DNA of 64,000 nt from Pseudomonadota bacterium (GTDB lineage Bacteria > Pseudomonadota > Gammaproteobacteria > Ga0077536). Below, in pieces: positions 17,010 to 62,578 of this stretch. Location of the stretch: positions 7,927 to 71,926 of the forward strand of contig JAYYZW010000049.1 of assembly GCA_036339995.1 (NCBI GenBank), read 5' to 3'. Numbering within the stretch: position 1 is the stretch's first letter; every line of letters starts with the position of its first letter. The notes under the pieces are model-generated. The model searched no databases and was not told where the DNA came from. It worked only from the letters and a program-made list of their open reading frames with translations. Both the position numbers and the translations under genes were made by a program.

Positions 17010-17844
17010 GTGATTACCCGATGTCCACAATACCATGCCTGGTTTCGCGTGACCGCCGAACACCTGCGCGAGGCGAACGGATTCGTGACCTGCGGAGAAT
17101 GTGATGCCGTCTTCAATGCGCTGACCACGCTGATCGAAGAAACAGCTTCACCGGACACGCTGCAACACGCGCCGGTGGCGCAAACCGCAGCACCCACCAT
17201 CACTCAAACGCGTCGGCGATCGAAACCGTCGCAGACCCGTCGACGACGGACTCCAAACCAGCGCTGAAAGAAAAACCTGACGCGGCTGGGATCGGCATAT
17301 CCACGGAGGAACCCGCTACAGCCCCAGCCGATGCGCCGGATCCCGAGTTGGATATAGCAAAGTTCGAAGAACTCCTCGCCGCGAATGGCGAGGTGCTTGA
17401 GGAGGTGATCGGAAAACCCAGGCCCGGATCCAGCGACTCGTCCCGAGTATCCGCAAAAGCTCTCGAAGTCGCCCCAGGCGTGGAGCAGGAGACCGATGCG
17501 GACGACGGAAGCGGGAGCTTATTATCACTGGACGATGAAGCCGCAGACGCGCTGCCCGAAGCATCCATGAGCGCCGATGATCATGCCATTACCGCGATGC
17601 ATTACTGGCCAACGCGGCCATGGTCAATGTCGCGCCCAACGCCAAACCGTTTCCCGCTATAGAACTAAGCTTGCACGACGCCGCCGGCAAGATCCTCGGT
17701 GCCCGGCTCTTCCAGCCGAGTGAGCACCTGGACGGGAGCATAGCGATCGCAGAGGGCATGCCGCCAGACAAGCCGGTCTAATCTGTGATGGAGCTCGGTG
17801 GTGATGCGCACGCTGCCGTCAGTTTCGAGTTTAAGTTCCTGTGA
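17010..17844 (+). pseudogene. DUF3426-type zinc-ribbon membrane protein gene, degraded by at least 2 frameshifts and 1 in-frame stop
   Basis: Frame 0 encodes the N-terminal zinc ribbon, MITRCPQYHAWFRVTAEHLREANGFVTCGECDAVF. The acidic linker (…DPELDIAKFEELL…DDEAADALPEA…) continues in frame 2 from about 17205. The DUF3426-like C-terminus (…PAIELSLHDAAGKILGARLFQPSEHLD…AVSFEFKFL) lies in frame 1 from about 17590 and carries a TAA at 17779..17781. Confidence 0.5.
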
Positions 17845-18056
17845 TTGCGAGCGGTTCCTAGGAGGCCTTTCTCGACAAGCCCATTGTGGCTATCATCATT
17901 CCCTCGCGACGGAGGACCCCAGGCGAGCGCGCCTTCGGGAGCTATTTCGAGAATTTGCTGATCTCCCGGCCAGCGGCCTGCATTTCGTCCGCCGTAGCGC
18001 GACCTGCGGCGTAGTGAGCACGCACCGTGACTTATTCAGAGGCTTCTTAAGCGAAT

Positions 18057-56108: not shown

Positions 56109-56136
56109 AGGCCGACAGCGGCTATTGGATTAAGGA

Positions 56137-56288
56137 CCTCTGAATAAGTCATGGCGCGTCTGAATTGTTCATGCGCAGTGCAGATCAAGGCACGAAGCGC
56201 AGGTAATAGCGGGGACTATTGGCAAGGTTCGTAACGTAAGGCTCCGCGATATCATGGGCAAGGCAGATGTGCCATGACTTATTCAGAG
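56137..56288. mobile_element. MITE-like repeat, copy 1 (152 bp; terminal inverted repeats CCTCTGAATAAGTCATGG / CCATGACTTATTCAGAG), ruvB-ybgC intergenic
   Basis: It has perfect 17-bp terminal inverted repeats. The body is about 90% identical to the reverse complement of 61730..61883. It ends 9 nt before the ybgC ATG. Confidence 0.75.
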
Positions 56289-56297
56289 ATTTCTTAA

Positions 56298-56711
56298 ATG
56301 ATAAGCGAACGCTTCGTGTGGCGGGTACGCGTCTATTACGAGGATACGGATGCAGCGGGAATCGTTTATCACGCGAACTATCTCCGCTTCATGGAGCGCG
56401 CGCGGACCGAGTGGCTGCGAGCGTTGGGATTTGAGCAGGATGCCTTGCTCGGCGATTTCAATATCGTGTTCGTCGTCAATCAAACCGATGTGAAATACGT
56501 TCGGGCGGCGCGGTTTAACGAGGAACTTACGGTCACAACCGGACTCGAACGATTGCGCGGAGCAAGCCTGGAGTTCGTGCAGATCATCGAGAACTGCGGT
56601 CAACGGTGCGTTTGTACGGCCAACAACCGCGTTGCCTGCGTCGATGCAAGCTCCTTCAAACCACGGCGAATTCCGGGGCAGATGTTGAGGGTGTTTCAAA
56701 GTGCAAACTGA
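56298..56711 (+). CDS. ybgC: Tol-Pal-associated acyl-CoA thioesterase YbgC
   Basis: 137 aa with a 4HBT hot-dog fold. The translation reads VRVYYEDTDAAGIVYHANYLRFMERARTEWL. Confidence 0.85.
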   Translation: MISERFVWRVRVYYEDTDAAGIVYHANYLRFMERARTEWLRALGFEQDALLGDFNIVFVVNQTDVKYVRAARFNEELTVTTGLERLRGASLEFVQIIENCGQRCVCTANNRVACVDASSFKPRRIPGQMLRVFQSAN

Positions 56712-57375
56712 TTTGTCCATAGCGAGCTTGATCCTGGGGGCGAGCCTGCTCGTTAAATTCGTCATGTTGGTTCTTTTGATTGCGTCCATCGCCTCCTGGG
56801 CCCTGATTTTCGCGAAGCGGCGCCAGATGCTTAAAGCCAAGCGCGACCTCAAGGAATTCGAGGATGAATTCTGGTCGACCGAAGATTTAACGGCGCTCTT
56901 CAATCGAGTTTCTGTGCAGGAATACGAGAAGACCAGTATGGAACGTATATTCGAAGCCGGATTCCGAGAATTCGCGCGGCTACGCAAGCGCGGCGGCATG
57001 GACGCAACGGACATTCTGGATGGTGCGCAGCGCGCCATGAAGGTCGCCGTCAGCCGCGAACTAGAGATGCTGGAAACGAATCTTCCGACACTTGCGACAG
57101 TGGGTTCGGTCAGTCCCTATATCGGTCTTTTTGGAACGGTATGGGGGATCATGAATTCGTTTCAGGCGCTCGGCAACGTCCATCAGGCGACGCTTGCCAT
57201 GGTCGCGCCGGGCATCTCCGAAGCGCTAGTAGCCACCGCAATGGGGTTGTTTGCAGCCATTCCCGCCGTCGTTGCGTACAACCTCTATTCCAGTGATATC
57301 GATCGAATATTCGGGCGATACGATATTTTTCACGAGGAGTTTCTTTCCATCCTGAGGCGCCAGGTACACGATTAA
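56701..57375 (+). CDS. tolQ: Tol-Pal system protein TolQ
   Basis: 224 aa of the MotA/TolQ/ExbB family. It carries …ASWALIFAKRRQ… and 3 TM helices. Confidence 0.92.
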   Translation: MQTDLSIASLILGASLLVKFVMLVLLIASIASWALIFAKRRQMLKAKRDLKEFEDEFWSTEDLTALFNRVSVQEYEKTSMERIFEAGFREFARLRKRGGMDATDILDGAQRAMKVAVSRELEMLETNLPTLATVGSVSPYIGLFGTVWGIMNSFQALGNVHQATLAMVAPGISEALVATAMGLFAAIPAVVAYNLYSSDIDRIFGRYDIFHEEFLSILRRQVHD

Positions 57376-57426
57376 TCAGTAGTTGAGTCATCCGTTTAAT
57401 CAACGACCTGTCAGGAGCCCCACTGC

Positions 57427-57852
57427 ATGCGACCTTCAAATGAACGTCGACGCTTGATGTCGGAAATCAACGTCGTTCCCTATATCGACGTCATGCTTGT
57501 GTTGCTGATTATCTTCATGATCACGGCACCGCTCATCACCCAGGGCGTTAAAATCGATCTGCCGCAGGCGCCCTCCGAGGTGCTTCCTCCAAGCGAGAAT
57601 GAACCGGTGATCGTGACGGTCGATGCCGCCGGCAGTGTGTTCATCGATTTCGGCGAAAATCCCGAGGACGCCGTGACTGAAGAAATTCTCGTTACCCGCA
57701 TCACCGCGCTCAAGAAATATCGCCCGCAGATTGAGGTTTTCGTGGAGGGCGATCGAGCGGTCGATTATGGGCGCGTTGTACGGGTCATGACCCTCCTACA
57801 ACAGGCAGGGGTCGTTTCCGTCGGCCTGATAACGCAGCCGCCGGAACGATAG
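57427..57852 (+). CDS. tolR: Tol-Pal system protein TolR
   Basis: 141 aa of the ExbD/TolR family. The signature is INVVPYIDVMLVLLIIFMITAPL. Confidence 0.92.
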   Translation: MRPSNERRRLMSEINVVPYIDVMLVLLIIFMITAPLITQGVKIDLPQAPSEVLPPSENEPVIVTVDAAGSVFIDFGENPEDAVTEEILVTRITALKKYRPQIEVFVEGDRAVDYGRVVRVMTLLQQAGVVSVGLITQPPER

Positions 57853-57898
57853 AGCGTCGCCGAAATCGTCGAGCCCATTTTCGAAAATCGCCCTGCGA

Positions 57899-58711
57899 AT
57901 GTATTCCAAACGAACTATTACACTTTCAATTCTTCTACACGTCGCGCTCGTGGTGCTCTTGATGGTGAGCGTCGATTTCGCGCCGCGTGAGGTCCGTGCC
58001 GGTGGCAACCGCAAGAAGATCGTACAAGCAGTCGTGGTCGACAATCACGCCGTAAAAGAGGAAGTCAAACGTCTCAAGGCAGCCGAAGAAAAAGCGAGGC
58101 TCGAACGGGCGCAGAAAGTCAAGGAAGCCAAGCGTAAGGTGGCGCAAGCCGAGAAAAAGCGCAAAGCCGAAGAAAAACGGCTGAAGGAACTCAAAGCGGA
58201 GCGAGCGCGTCTCAAGAAGAAGGATGATCAGGCGCGAAAACGGGCGGCTGAGGCGGACAAAAAGCGTGAGGTGGACCTAAAGCGTCTGGCGAAAGAAAAA
58301 GAGCAGCGTGAAGACGCCGAACGCAAAAAACGTGAGACGGAGCTTGCCGCAGCGGAACGCAAAAGAATTGAACGGGCTTTGCAGGATGATCTTGCCGTCG
58401 AGGAAGCGATGCGCCAGGCCGCCGTAGAAAAATCGGAGATCGACCGTTATGTCGCGGCCATTCAAAACCGCGTACGGCAGTCGTTCACGATCCTACCCGG
58501 CCTGGACGGTTTGTCATGCACCTTGCGCATCACCTTGATACCGGGCGGCGAGGTGTCACAGGTACAAGTTATGAAGTCGAGCGGCAACGCCACGTTTGAC
58601 CGACAGGCGGAAAACGCGGTCCGAAAATCGGCGCCCTTACCCGTACCCACGGATCCAAGGCTATTCAAGAAAATGAGGAGCATTTCCTTTGTGTTTGATC
58701 CACAGACTTAG
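57899..58711 (+). CDS. tolA: Tol-Pal system protein TolA
   Basis: 270 aa. It has an N-terminal TM anchor, a long K/E/A/R-rich helical domain II and a C-terminal TolA domain III. Confidence 0.85.
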   Translation: MYSKRTITLSILLHVALVVLLMVSVDFAPREVRAGGNRKKIVQAVVVDNHAVKEEVKRLKAAEEKARLERAQKVKEAKRKVAQAEKKRKAEEKRLKELKAERARLKKKDDQARKRAAEADKKREVDLKRLAKEKEQREDAERKKRETELAAAERKRIERALQDDLAVEEAMRQAAVEKSEIDRYVAAIQNRVRQSFTILPGLDGLSCTLRITLIPGGEVSQVQVMKSSGNATFDRQAENAVRKSAPLPVPTDPRLFKKMRSISFVFDPQT

Positions 58712-60014
58712 TCGGCGCATCACCTACAGTGTGCTGCTCGCCGTCGCGTTGGCCGCAGAGGGTGAAGCGGCAGAGGGTGAATTGATCATTCACATCGATC
58801 AGGGCATCGAATCGGCGCTGCCGATCGCGGTGGTCCCTTTTGCCACGATCGGGGACATGAGCGGCGGCACGGACGTGGCCGCAGTGATCAGTTCGGACCT
58901 CGCGCGCAGCGGACAGTTCGCGCCAATGCCGAAGACGGATTTGCCTTCCCGGCCAGCGAGTTTCTCCGCGATCAATTTCAAGGATTGGCGGCTGCTCGGT
59001 ATGGAGAATCTCGTCATCGGAAAAATCCTGCGCTCGCCCAAAGGCGGATTCGTCGTAGAGTTTCGCGTCATAGATATTTACGGAGGCAAACAACTTCTTG
59101 GATACAGGATCCCGACGTCCGCGGACAACATGCGCTTGACGGCGCACCATGTGAGCGATCTCATATACGAGAAACTGACGAACAGGAAAGGCGCGTTCGC
59201 TACTCGTATCGCATATGTGACGGTCGAACGGACATCCAAAGATCAATCGATATTTCGTCTGCAGGTCGCCGATGCCGACGGCTTTGACCCCCATACCATT
59301 CTGGAATCCTCGCAACCCTTACTGTCTCCGGCCTGGTCACCGGACGGATCGCAGCTCGCCTACGTTTCTTTTGAAGACAAAAATTCGGCCATTTACCTGC
59401 AAAACATCAAAACGGGCCGCAGAAAGAAGATCATATCGGGTGACGGCATTAACAGCGCGCCATCCTTCGCACCCGATGGCGAGCGTCTGGCCGTCACCCT
59501 TTCGCGCGACGGAGACCCCGAGATTTATCGTTATCATCTGGAAACTAGAAAGTTAACGCGCTTGACCAGACATCCCGCCATCGACACCGAAGCCAATTGG
59601 GCGCCCGACGGCAGGAGCATCGTATTCACGTCCGACCGTGGTGGTGGCCCGCAGATCTATCGACTCTTTTTCGACGGCAGCGCGCCGCAGCGGGTAACTT
59701 TCAACATGGGATCCTATAACGCTCGGGCTAGGCATTCGCCCGACGGTAAAAAACTCGCGGTAGTACACGGCGGCGAACGCGGATTTCACATCGCGGTACT
59801 CGATCTGGAAAACGGATTTTTCGAAATTCTGACCAGCGCCCGTTTGGATGAATCGCCGAGCTTTGCACCCAACGGCCGTATAATAATTTATGCGACAATG
59901 GGTCCACGCGGCACGGAATTGGCGGTGACATCAATCGATGGGCGCTTGAAGCAACGACTGGCCTTGCAAACTGGCGAAGTAAGAGAGCCGGTGTGGGGTC
60001 CGTTCAGACAGTAA
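58689..60014 (+). CDS. tolB: Tol-Pal system beta-propeller protein TolB
   Basis: 441 aa. The N-terminal domain has …IAVVPF… It has repeated …SP(A/S)(W/F)(S/A)PDG… propeller blades. Confidence 0.92.
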   Translation: MCLIHRLSRRITYSVLLAVALAAEGEAAEGELIIHIDQGIESALPIAVVPFATIGDMSGGTDVAAVISSDLARSGQFAPMPKTDLPSRPASFSAINFKDWRLLGMENLVIGKILRSPKGGFVVEFRVIDIYGGKQLLGYRIPTSADNMRLTAHHVSDLIYEKLTNRKGAFATRIAYVTVERTSKDQSIFRLQVADADGFDPHTILESSQPLLSPAWSPDGSQLAYVSFEDKNSAIYLQNIKTGRRKKIISGDGINSAPSFAPDGERLAVTLSRDGDPEIYRYHLETRKLTRLTRHPAIDTEANWAPDGRSIVFTSDRGGGPQIYRLFFDGSAPQRVTFNMGSYNARARHSPDGKKLAVVHGGERGFHIAVLDLENGFFEILTSARLDESPSFAPNGRIIIYATMGPRGTELAVTSIDGRLKQRLALQTGEVREPVWGPFRQ

Positions 60015-60078
60015 CTCGGCGAACGTCTGCAATCGGTGACTGGACACCCACCCGGAAGATTATTAGGAGGAAAAGCGT

Positions 60079-60636
60079 ATGAAAGAGGTCGGCTTTAAAC
60101 TCGTGCTCGTGCTGATGGCCGCGATACTGCTGGCTGGATGCGGTGCCGTCGGTGGTAAAAAGGAGCAAGCAACTACTCCCGCGAAGGTCGAGGACCGCAG
60201 TATGGATCGTGCGGAATCCGATGCGGATGCTGATTCCGACGCGCGAACTCAGGGACTTGAAGATGATGAAACAATGTCGGCGGCCGCGCTTGACGATCCT
60301 GACAGCCCGCTTTCAGTGCGCGTCATTTATTTCGACTACGACAGCAGTATCGTGCGGGCGGATTTCAGCGAGATGATCGCCGCCCATGCCGCCTATCTGG
60401 CGGCTAACCCTTCGACCACCGTGACCCTCGAAGGGCATGCGGACGAACGCGGTACCCGCGAATACAACCTGGCGCTCGGAGAACGTCGGGGACTGTCGGT
60501 GCGGCGTCATCTGGTGTTGCTTGGCGCGTCGGCGGGCCAGGTCAAGACGGTGAGTTACGGCGAGGAACGACCGCTCGTCGACGGACATGACGAAGATTCT
60601 TATGCGCTGAACCGATGTGTCGAACTGGTCTATTGA
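60079..60636 (+). CDS. pal: Peptidoglycan-associated lipoprotein Pal
   Basis: 185 aa. The lipobox is LLAGC. The OmpA-like C-terminal domain reads …RVIYFDYDSS…GHADERGTREYNLALGERR… The AGGAGG ribosome-binding site lies upstream. Confidence 0.92.
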   Translation: MKEVGFKLVLVLMAAILLAGCGAVGGKKEQATTPAKVEDRSMDRAESDADADSDARTQGLEDDETMSAAALDDPDSPLSVRVIYFDYDSSIVRADFSEMIAAHAAYLAANPSTTVTLEGHADERGTREYNLALGERRGLSVRRHLVLLGASAGQVKTVSYGEERPLVDGHDEDSYALNRCVELVY

Positions 60637-60645
60637 TAAGGGCCC

Positions 60646-61725
60646 GTGAACTTGGCAATGCTTGGAATGTTTCGAAGGACTCGATCGCAGACACCTCGCA
60701 ACAAGCTTGCCTCGTTGACGGTGATGCTGGGGCTCTTGGCGTGCCTGCCGGCAACCGTGAACGGTCAGACCGAGGGGGGCCTCGCTGGTCGAATGACGCG
60801 CCTGGAACGTGCGCTCGATAGCAAGGGGCTGGTCGAACTGCTCCAACAGCTCGAATTGTTGCAAGCCGAACTCCGGCAACTACGCGGCGAGATGGAAAAT
60901 CAGGTATTCGCTCTAGAGATGGTGCGGAAGAGCCAGCGCGAGGCGTACGCCGACGTCGACCAGCGGCTGGGGCTGATCGAGAATGGCGGGGTCGCCGCCA
61001 CCGTGGCTGCTGTCCCCGGCGTCGCAACCGATCCACCCCTGCCGACTCTTACAACGCCCGCCGGTGGTGTTGTCGCGGGGACCCCTTCCGCTCAGGCTAT
61101 CGCGGTCGATATTCGACCGCCCGCTGTAGCCGCGCTCGCCGTTGGGGCAGATCTGATCGAAGCGGGTGCAGTTGTGCCGGGCGATACGGATGAACTACCA
61201 CTGGACGGAGCGGCGGCAACAGCCGACGTTCCCAGTGATATTGCATTGATGGATTCGACACAACCGCCGGCGAGTACCACGCCGATTATTGACTGGCCCA
61301 CGCCGTCGATCCTGCCGCCGACACCAACGGTTGATAGCGCGGAGTCCAAAGCAGCGTACAGGGGGGCCTTCACCATGTTGAAAGCGGGCCAGTACGACGA
61401 ATGCATCGCGTCGTTCAACAATTTCCTGCGGCAGTATCCATCCAGCCAGTATGCGGATAACGCTCAGTACTGGCTGGGCGAAGCTTATTACGTCATGGGT
61501 CAGTTCGAACCCGCGATCGATCAATACCAAAAACTGGTCAACGGCTACCCTGATAGCAAGAAGCAATCGCACGCGATGCTCAAGATCGCTTACAGCTATC
61601 ACAAACTCGCACTGGCCGAGCAGGCGGTTGGTGTTCTGACTGAACTGAAAAATCGCTTTCCGGGCTCTGCCGCGGCACGCTTCGCCGACGAGCGTTTGAG
61701 GCGAATACGAGCGGAGTCACCCTAA
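60646..61725 (+). CDS. cpoB: Cell-division coordinator CpoB (YbgF) with extended Pro/Thr/Ala-rich linker
   Basis: 359 aa. It has a signal peptide, an N-terminal coiled coil (LQAELRQLRGEMENQ) and C-terminal TPR repeats (…YWLGEAYY…). This is the last gene of the tol-pal cluster. Confidence 0.8.
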   Translation: MNLAMLGMFRRTRSQTPRNKLASLTVMLGLLACLPATVNGQTEGGLAGRMTRLERALDSKGLVELLQQLELLQAELRQLRGEMENQVFALEMVRKSQREAYADVDQRLGLIENGGVAATVAAVPGVATDPPLPTLTTPAGGVVAGTPSAQAIAVDIRPPAVAALAVGADLIEAGAVVPGDTDELPLDGAAATADVPSDIALMDSTQPPASTTPIIDWPTPSILPPTPTVDSAESKAAYRGAFTMLKAGQYDECIASFNNFLRQYPSSQYADNAQYWLGEAYYVMGQFEPAIDQYQKLVNGYPDSKKQSHAMLKIAYSYHKLALAEQAVGVLTELKNRFPGSAAARFADERLRRIRAESP

Positions 61726-61729
61726 GGAA

Positions 61730-61883
61730 CCTCTGAAAAAGTCATGGCACATCTGCCTTGCCTATGAAATTGCGGAGCCTTACGTTACGAACCTTGCCAA
61801 TAGTCCCCGCTATAGTCTGCGATTCGTGCCTTGATCTGCGCGATTTCATGAACAATTCAGACGCACCATGACTTATTCAGAGG
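61730..61883. mobile_element. MITE-like repeat, copy 2 (154 bp), inverted relative to copy 1, cpoB-queE intergenic
   Basis: It starts 5 nt after the cpoB stop and ends 23 nt before the queE ATG. Its terminal inverted repeats are CCTCTGAAAAAGTCATGG / CCATGACTTATTCAGAGG. The reverse complement aligns with 56137..56288 with about 15 differences. Confidence 0.75.
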
Positions 61884-61906
61884 TTCCCTAAACGCCTTCT
61901 CCTTTC

Positions 61907-62578
61907 ATGGATACCCCGCAGCCGACCGCGTCCAACGCGGGTACCTTGCGAATCACCGAAATATTTCTGTCCATTCAGGGCGAATCCACCCGTGTTGGAC
62001 GCCCGACCGTGTTCGTCCGGACCACCGGATGCCCGCTTCGGTGTGTTTACTGTGACACCGCATACGCGTTTTCAGGCGGCCAATTGATGAGCATCGATGC
62101 GATCATCGAGCGAGTAAGGGAACTTAATGTCCCCCGCGTGACTTTGACGGGCGGTGAGCCTCTTGCGCAGAACGGTGCGTTCGAACTCCTCACGCGCTTG
62201 TGTAATGCGAACTTTGAGGTGTCGCTCGAAACGAGCGGTGCATGCGATGTTGCGTGCGTGGATCATCGAGTCATGAAGGTCCTCGACATCAAGACACCCG
62301 GATCGGGCGAGGTCAAGCGCAACCTGTGGTCGAATCTCGGGCATTTACACAAGCCGGACCAGTTGAAGTTCGTCATTTGCGGACGCGCCGATTACGAATG
62401 GAGCCGTGCGAGAATCTCGGAGTTGCAAATCGACGAAGACGTTGAAATCCTTTTATCACCCAGCTACGGCGCCGTCGAAGCGCGGGAACTGGCCGAGTGG
62501 ATACTGGAAGATTCACTGAACGTGCGGCTGCAGGTACAGCTTCATAAATATCTTTGGGGAGACGTCCCTGGACGCTGA
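61907..62578 (+). CDS. queE: 7-carboxy-7-deazaguanine synthase (radical SAM)
   Basis: 223 aa. The translation …[27 protein letters not shown]… carries the Cx14CxxC cluster motif of QueE. Confidence 0.9.

Follow-up and report, generated by a model that had tools for sequence, protein, structure and literature searches.

Why should the tol-pal gene cluster of an uncultured gammaproteobacterium be bracketed by two inverted copies of the same short repeat? The question arises in a 64,000-nucleotide stretch of contig JAYYZW010000049.1 (assembly GCA_036339995.1, Pseudomonadota bacterium; hereafter the window), in which the genes from ybgC to cpoB lie between one repeat copy in the ruvB-ybgC spacer and a second, inverted copy in the cpoB-queE spacer. 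A preliminary description of this locus, made from the sequence alone, likened the repeat to known MITE families (MITE: miniature inverted-repeat transposable element), and proposed that the pair could allow inversion of the whole tol-pal unit or could supply promoters or RNA-processing sites to ybgC and queE. We conclude that the two copies are very probably independent insertions of a ~162-bp non-autonomous transposon, a MITE, whose ends are those of the IS5 group of insertion sequences (IS). That they bracket tol-pal follows from where targets were available and from the way copies cluster locally, and not from any tol-pal function. The features of the locus are:

56134..56293, called forward: MITE copy 1, 160 nt, in the ruvB-ybgC spacer, with a 1-nt deletion in its left terminal repeat
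56130..56133: TTAA, copy 1's left target-site duplication
56294..56297: TTAA, copy 1's right target-site duplication, adjoining the ybgC ATG at 56298
61726..61887, reverse: MITE copy 2, 162 nt, in the cpoB-queE spacer
61722..61725: left target-site duplication of copy 2, CTAA, which includes the cpoB stop codon TAA at 61723-61725
61888..61891: CTAA, copy 2's right target-site duplication; the queE ATG is 15 nt further, at 61907
56298..61725, forward: ybgC-tolQ-tolR-tolA-tolB-pal-cpoB, host genes between the insertions and outside the element (NCBIfam equivalog matches)

The ends of the element were read from 31 aligned copies with 40-nt flanks, most of them from the metagenome-derived loci described below. 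Conservation in this alignment ends at GGAACC...GGTTCC, and the information content is ~0 just beyond the flanking 4-mer. A terminal inverted repeat of ~22 nt, GGAACCTCTGAATAAGTCATGG, is present at both ends of the element and is near-invariant in 31-37 copies, with a weaker complementarity of the arms that reaches ~55 nt, so that the whole is an imperfect palindrome. Neither copy in the window, at 160-162 nt, has an open reading frame of 60 or more amino acids confined to it. Over the true elements, copies 1 and 2 are identical in 146 of 165 alignment columns, with 11 mismatches and 8 gap columns, and their longest identical runs are 42, 24 and 19 nt; their identities to a consensus of 37 copies are 90.7% and 94.4%, respectively. 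An 18-mer from the terminus, CCTCTGAATAAGTCATGG, has five matches in the window when up to 3 mismatches are allowed, against 0 expected in shuffled sequences. These five are the four ends of copies 1 and 2 and one solo end, at 18025-18042. This MITE is the sole sizeable repeat family in the window.

The preliminary description had placed the two inverted copies correctly, with limits that fall 3-4 nt short at each end, and several of its details change when the true ends are used. Between its limits (56137-56288 against the reverse complement of 61731-61883) a blastn alignment shows 90.2% identity over 153 columns (E ~5e-47), and its count of about 15 substitutions and one 1-nt indel gives way to the mismatch and gap counts above. 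Its 17-18 bp terminal repeats, called perfect, match at 17 of 18 positions within each copy. The two spacers are largely filled by the element, though not exactly filled as had been stated: element and duplications make up 168 of the 189 nt between ruvB and ybgC, and element and downstream duplication make up 166 of the 181 nt between cpoB and queE. The true ends lie 4 nt from the start codon of ybgC and 19 nt from that of queE (0 and 15 nt past the duplication), rather than the 9-23 nt first given. The statement that the copies enclose the seven tol-pal cluster genes and nothing else agrees with the NCBIfam matches, which confirm ruvB, ybgC, tolQ, tolR, tolA, tolB, pal, cpoB, queE and queC.

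The element is dispersed. A scan of one genome per species with its terminal 17-mer found at least 103 stretches with matches, although most of the single 17-mer matches in this collection were judged to be chance. At least 28 blocks of 8 kb with matches come from a single metagenome-assembled genome (MAG), CAXXLL01 ('Gammaproteobacteria bacterium'), on contigs of 2.59 and 2.97 Mb, and many of these blocks contain paired matches 135 nt apart. They hold at least 29 full-length copies, 83-93% identical to copy 1 and located at 29 different sites, as well as deleted, half and solo copies. One further copy is present in a locus from a congener of the window's source (L115; retrieved loci are numbered with the prefix L), and a scan with an internal 20-mer recovered six full copies in metagenome contigs from two Joint Genome Institute (JGI) samples, one of which occupies the same site as a copy in CAXXLL01. 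The 37 copies average 92.6% identity to their consensus and 88.2% identity to one another. The window overlaps none of the retrieved loci, so copies 1 and 2 are additional to these. No match to the element was found in the Rfam, plasmid or phage collections. Among viral contigs the terminal 17-mer had 11 single matches with no paired second end, and such of them as matched the 22-nt terminus in any degree had 4 mismatches; we regard these as chance.

Local clustering of copies is common in CAXXLL01. For example, locus L057 (506-3194) has three copies within 2.7 kb, in direct orientation, two of which flank a single gene; the targets of these two were the stop codon of the flanked gene and the stop codon of its neighbor. 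Loci L059 and L095 have two copies each within ~2 kb. Against this background, two copies 5.6 kb apart at tol-pal are unremarkable.

Several aberrant forms were seen among the retrieved sequences. Two short forms of ~105 nt (L074:7513-7620, and L100:1107-1000 on the reverse strand) stop ~20 nt past the center of the element and end in GTTC or GATC followed by TTAA or TTAT, resembling the normal end GGTTCC|YTAR; the transposase may have used an internal pseudo-end in these. Another copy (L077:2838-2963) has an internal deletion, and at L109:2004 a normal left end is joined to a different interior. Exact matches to the internal 20-mer, GCGATTTCATGGGCAAGGCA, occur without the rest of the element in six metagenome contigs (L124, L125, L127, L129, L130 and L133). 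This number seems higher than chance would give. The isolated 20-mer may reflect a motif conserved in coding sequence, or it may be a remnant of the source from which the element's interior came.

The two sites at tol-pal are empty in related genomes. Using TolB homologs we reached the syntenic loci of three relatives, L115, L116 and L118, whose TolB proteins are respectively 93%, 80% and 78% identical to that of the window, and all three have the same tol-pal gene order without the elements. From ruvB to queC, L115 has 90-92% DNA identity to the window, and the alignment breaks exactly at both elements. Its cpoB-queE junction reads GAGTCACC-CTAA-ACGCCTTC, which equals the window with the element and one CTAA taken out, ACGCC following directly after the remaining CTAA. 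Its ruvB-ybgC spacer is 25 nt long and collinear with the window spacer minus the element and one TTAA, and the ybgC start ATG-ATA-AGC is conserved. L116 and L118 lack the element at both spacers, and their ruvB and ybgC genes are 23 nt apart or overlapping. The polymorphism also runs in the other direction, because the copy that L115 does have, in the 223-nt spacer that separates genes for a Na/Ca exchanger and a SIS/CBS protein, is missing from L116, and the corresponding spacer in L118 is 37 nt. The preliminary description had accepted that a palindromic regulatory sequence would be more likely than a mobile element if just these two copies, with no empty sites, occurred in every related genome; what we found contradicts this, in that copies are dispersed and both tol-pal sites are empty in L115, one of them exactly so.

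Downstream of copy 2, the 15 nt between the duplication and the queE ATG (61892-61906, ACGCCTTCTCCTTTC) lack a Shine-Dalgarno-like sequence and differ very little from those of L115, and gene callers set the queE start of L115 and L116 60 codons downstream. In L116 (1853-4548) the nadA gene is interrupted by a gene for a 437-aa transposase (Pfam DDE_Tnp_1_4 + DDE_Tnp_1) that belongs to a different insertion sequence.

The flanks of the copies show what kind of duplication is made on insertion. The consensus of the flanking 4-mers is YTAR ([T/C]TA[A/G]). In 16 of 31 copies the same 4-mer stands on both sides, compared with a mean of 5.5 and a maximum of 14 in 20,000 permutations. Copy 1 counts here as a mismatch only because the 1-nt deletion puts its alignment columns out of register; both copies in the window, when read directly, have perfect duplications (TTAA/TTAA and CTAA/CTAA). 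Position 1 of the 4-mer is repeated directly in 27 of 31 copies and position 4 in 23 of 31, whereas the inverted relation of these positions is seen in just 7 and 10 copies. Even rare 4-mers match on both sides (TAAG/TAAG, TTTA/TTTA). We had first read the duplication as TA, and dropped that reading once the flanking bases had been tested for a direct as opposed to an inverted relation: the direct repetition, together with identical 4-mers that include rare ones, means that the duplication is 4 bp (YTAR). The direct repeats, the dispersed copies and the pairs of filled and empty sites together strongly support the view of the preliminary description that this is a mobile, MITE-like element.

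A 4-bp YTAR duplication is documented for IS5 (PMC5009759), and the termini of the element are similar to those of true IS5-group elements. In two Chloroflexota genomes (OZ253463.1 and OZ244145.1) a multi-copy element of ~1.2 kb (L028:2068-3285; also L029, L038, L041, L065 and L106) opens with YTAR|GAACTCTCTGAATAAGTCATGG and is flanked by CTAG/CTAG. Although their hosts belong to different phyla, its left end and the MITE have 18 consecutive bases in common. The product of this element, a 322-aa protein with the domains DUF772 + DDE_Tnp_1 in Pfam, scores 313 bits against the NCBIfam model IS5_4 (cut-off 140) and is 50% identical to InsH of E. coli IS5 (E = 5e-115). A plasmid search with a 46-nt element end as query gave an element on a Marinobacter plasmid, with an IS5 family transposase in its annotation, that begins TTAG|GGAACCTCTGAATAAC, has TTAG on both sides and matches the MITE at 15 of 16 positions; it also gave a Xanthomonas MITE, described below, a Pantoea match that lies inside a gene and was rejected as chance, and some weak matches in other plasmid records. 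The ends of E. coli IS5A, GGAAGGTGCGAATAAG and GGAAGGTGCGAACAAGTC, match the MITE at 12 and 11 of 16 positions. From the YTAR duplication and these termini, we classify the element by sequence as a MITE with ends of the IS5-group type and not of the Correia or IS630 type, and we infer that the transposase mobilizing it belongs to this group.

All 31 copies for which we determined gene context are intergenic, usually in very short spacers. The genes were called with a simple codon-usage gene caller, which reproduces the known genes of the window. Copies are mostly located between genes on the same strand, a few to tens of nucleotides from stop or start codons, and these copies are probably co-transcribed with their neighbors. 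In 11 of the 31 the duplication is the stop codon of the neighboring gene. The target explains why copies come to lie on stop codons and at the borders of genes, since TAA or TAG is part of YTAR: 14 of the 60 stop codons in the window fall in a YTAR, and YTAR density is 2.46 per kb in coding interiors compared with 8.98 per kb elsewhere (~3.6-fold) in this genome of ~57% GC. More than half of all YTAR sites are nevertheless inside genes, with none of the 31 copies there, from which we infer that selection removes such insertions. At copy 1 the duplication adjoins the ybgC ATG, so the region where a ribosome-binding site would be is now element sequence.

In the origin that best explains these data, an IS5-family DDE transposase acting in trans would bind the ~22-bp terminal inverted repeats of the MITE and insert it at a YTAR tetranucleotide, which would thereby be duplicated on both sides. 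Insertions inside genes are presumably lost to selection, and the survivors accumulate in short spacers, often on stop codons, where the duplication preserves a stop codon that was hit. At tol-pal, copy 2 entered the CTAA that holds the cpoB stop codon and copy 1 a TTAA just before the ybgC ATG, both after the split from the congener whose DNA is ~91% identical. Several points weigh against this scenario. A tblastn search with two IS5 transposases as queries against the retrieved DNA, which covered a small part of the genomes, detected no gene for an IS5-family transposase with such ends in the window, in ~225 kb of CAXXLL01 or in the related loci, and no partner element close to any copy. The flanking 4-mers are not identical in 15 of 31 copies, mostly by one difference, which we attribute to decay after insertion. 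At ruvB-ybgC, L115 has ATCG where the window has TTAA, which is consistent with insertion but does not give an exact before-and-after pair. Finally, the gene context depends on our own simple codon-usage caller.

How do other explanations fare against these data? An element of the Correia/NEMIS or IS630/Tc1-mariner type, duplicating TA, would account for the TA on both sides of every copy, and the size of ~160 bp, the long hairpin and the intergenic position are Correia-like (PMC2229807). We nevertheless think this very unlikely, because the bases outside and inside the TA repeat directly (27 and 23 of 31 copies, against 7 and 10 for the inverted relation), the 4-mers are identical in 16 of 31 copies including the rare pairs, and the termini match IS5-group elements that encode DUF772 + DDE_Tnp_1. 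The resemblance to Correia, ERIC and NEMIS elements noted in the preliminary description therefore pointed to the wrong kind of element. A conserved palindromic sequence that is not mobile and serves tol-pal as an operator, attenuator or RNA-processing site would fit the strong predicted hairpins and the closeness of both copies to start codons. It has almost no probability in our view: the filled and empty pairs, with both spacers lacking the element in three relatives of the same gene order, refute a conserved local palindrome, the element is present at more than 30 unrelated sites, and it shows neither an Rfam match nor covariation. As to the pair acting as a unit, the 42-nt run of identity between the inverted copies, the longest of the three runs noted above, is long enough for rare RecA-dependent exchange, given minimal homology lengths. 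Inversion of the tol-pal segment by homologous recombination, as the preliminary description suggested, is thus possible in principle. No inversion has become fixed, however, since each copy retains its own matched duplication, where inversion would have exchanged the inner flanks, and since gene order and orientation are the same as in the three relatives without elements. The differing outer flanks (TTAA and CTAA) exclude insertion as a composite transposon, no recombinase gene was found between or beside the copies with NCBIfam, and copies elsewhere in the MAG cluster too, such as the three in direct orientation at L057. That the pair forms an invertible segment or a composite transposon carrying tol-pal is accordingly highly improbable.

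The remaining alternative accepts a mobile element but holds that its copies have effects at the RNA level that are under selection, through RNase III cleavage, insulation within polycistronic transcripts or the supply of a Shine-Dalgarno-like GAGG. As the preliminary description had anticipated, long stable hairpins are predicted for both copies as RNA (-76 kcal/mol, z = -8, for copy 1, and -59.8 kcal/mol, z = -7.6, for copy 2). Folding is strand-asymmetric, with means of -80.8 kcal/mol for the forward and -62.4 kcal/mol for the reverse orientation (~18 apart) and the forward orientation the more stable one in every one of the 31 copies; G-U pairs in the arms of the consensus number 7 in one orientation but 1 in the opposite one. 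Where copies lie between same-strand genes, the orientation with the weaker hairpin is transcribed 17 times and the stronger one 6 times (p ~0.03, a binomial estimate), a hint that operon transcripts with very long, perfect hairpins are selected against. Further points in favor are that co-transcription is probable, that a GAGG stands at a distance of 8 nt from the duplication's outer edge, and that, as a precedent by analogy, Correia RNA is cleaved by RNase III (PMC2229807). On this alternative the YTAR target and the build of its ends would suit the family to spacers between tightly packed or translationally coupled genes: the duplication would keep the stop codon upstream intact, GAGG would serve a start codon directly adjacent, as at ybgC, and selection on the asymmetric hairpin would produce the 17:6 bias. 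If it were true, the copies at tol-pal would act at the RNA level, for example by way of RNase III processing, to uncouple the ybgC-cpoB segment from its neighbors ruvB and queE.

Several observations count against such effects, and we consider the alternative unlikely. The orientation bias is modest and comes from a small sample with rough gene calls, the G-U asymmetry could descend from a single master copy, and in copy 1 the GAGG is mutated to GAGA. Applied to 37 copies, RNAalifold found a covariation term of +0.09, and 2 of 43 pairs had double changes; copies decay by breaking pairs. Rfam had no match between 55900 and 62100 at E <= 1, and at gathering thresholds its one match was a tRNA elsewhere. 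These results lend no support to the RNA-processing sites that the preliminary description proposed for ybgC and queE, and its outward promoters likewise did not appear in motif scans, which detected no sigma-70-like promoter or terminator-like site inside copies 1 and 2 and gave totals at the level of shuffled sequences. Candidate sigma-54 and integration host factor (IHF) motifs picked out by eye were rejected because their spacing or bases were wrong. The hairpin looks like a by-product of the palindromic build of the element.

Placed among known systems, the MITE agrees with E. coli IS5 and the IS5 group in its 4-bp YTAR duplication and in the terminal pattern GGAA....GAAYAAGTC that is common to both; it differs from them in lacking a transposase gene, in its size (~162 bp compared with ~1.2 kb) and in an interior unrelated to that of the IS5 elements we saw. 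MITEs have been tied to IS5-family parents by their ends before, namely BrickBuilt, MITEPgRS and MITE239 of Porphyromonas gingivalis, and ATR of Neisseria, which is linked to ISNme1 (PMC4596501). Like the element described here, these are short and non-coding, with IS5-family terminal repeats and no remnant of a transposase (PMC4596501). Those earlier MITEs, however, have ends of the GAGACC type, from another IS5 subgroup, and duplications that are variable or absent, whereas the present family has GGAACC ends and clean YTAR duplications, and its hosts are different, being uncultured Gammaproteobacteria. Correia/NEMIS elements of Neisseria are in the same size class (~107-155 bp) and are alike in having long terminal inverted repeats, an intergenic location, a hairpin and filled/empty polymorphism (PMC2229807). 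By description they are set apart by a TA duplication and different terminal repeats of ~24 bp, and roles of promoters, IHF and RNase III have been documented in them. REP/BIME sequences, which are mobilized by RAYT, are imperfect palindromes of 20-40 nt without a duplication, in contrast to 160 nt with defined ends and 4-bp duplications here.

We also came across two other MITEs of ~150-160 bp with the same IS5-type ends, their terminal repeats being GGAAGCTCTGAATAAGTCATGG and GGAACCTCTGAACAACTC. One, in a Thiodiazotropha MAG (L035:797-956), has TTAA on both sides; the other, on the Xanthomonas perforans plasmid CP077786.1 (L136:2505-2655), has TTAG on its left. Their interiors are unrelated to that of the present element, which makes them separate families, and they presumably arose independently from related IS5-group elements.

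The MITE family is apparently new and unnamed, and known so far from uncultured Gammaproteobacteria. The preliminary description had called it undescribed, which is plausible for this particular sequence, encountered in MAGs and metagenomes alone and without a match in the Rfam, plasmid or phage collections; the kind of element is well known. An uncultured lineage of Gammaproteobacteria thereby gains a defined MITE family whose ends are exact, whose target is YTAR and whose parental IS family we place in the IS5 group. In annotation, its copies would otherwise be mistaken for regulatory palindromes, and in assembly such repeats break short-read contigs. Presence or absence of a copy can serve as a marker between close relatives. 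The family also shows how, in a GC-rich genome, the target preference of IS5-type elements directs insertions to stop codons and to the borders of genes. We see no sign of a switch specific to tol-pal; the repeats are ordinary mobile DNA. Copy 1, just before the ybgC start and between genes that are adjacent or overlapping in relatives, offers a small, testable case of a MITE altering an operon junction.

The window contains one more trace of the family, far from tol-pal:

18020..18050, forward: solo element end, ACGCACCGTGACTTATTCAGAGGCTTC and then TTAA, located 6 nt upstream of where dusB starts; the remainder of the element is absent

This solo end closes the prmA-dusB spacer, which is unusually long (1.08 kb) and whose sole recognizable open reading frame, at 17010-17267, encodes a small zinc-ribbon protein. 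Comparable solo ends are found in CAXXLL01, for example upstream of parC (L031:5422) and at the 3' end of a gene (L012:7150).

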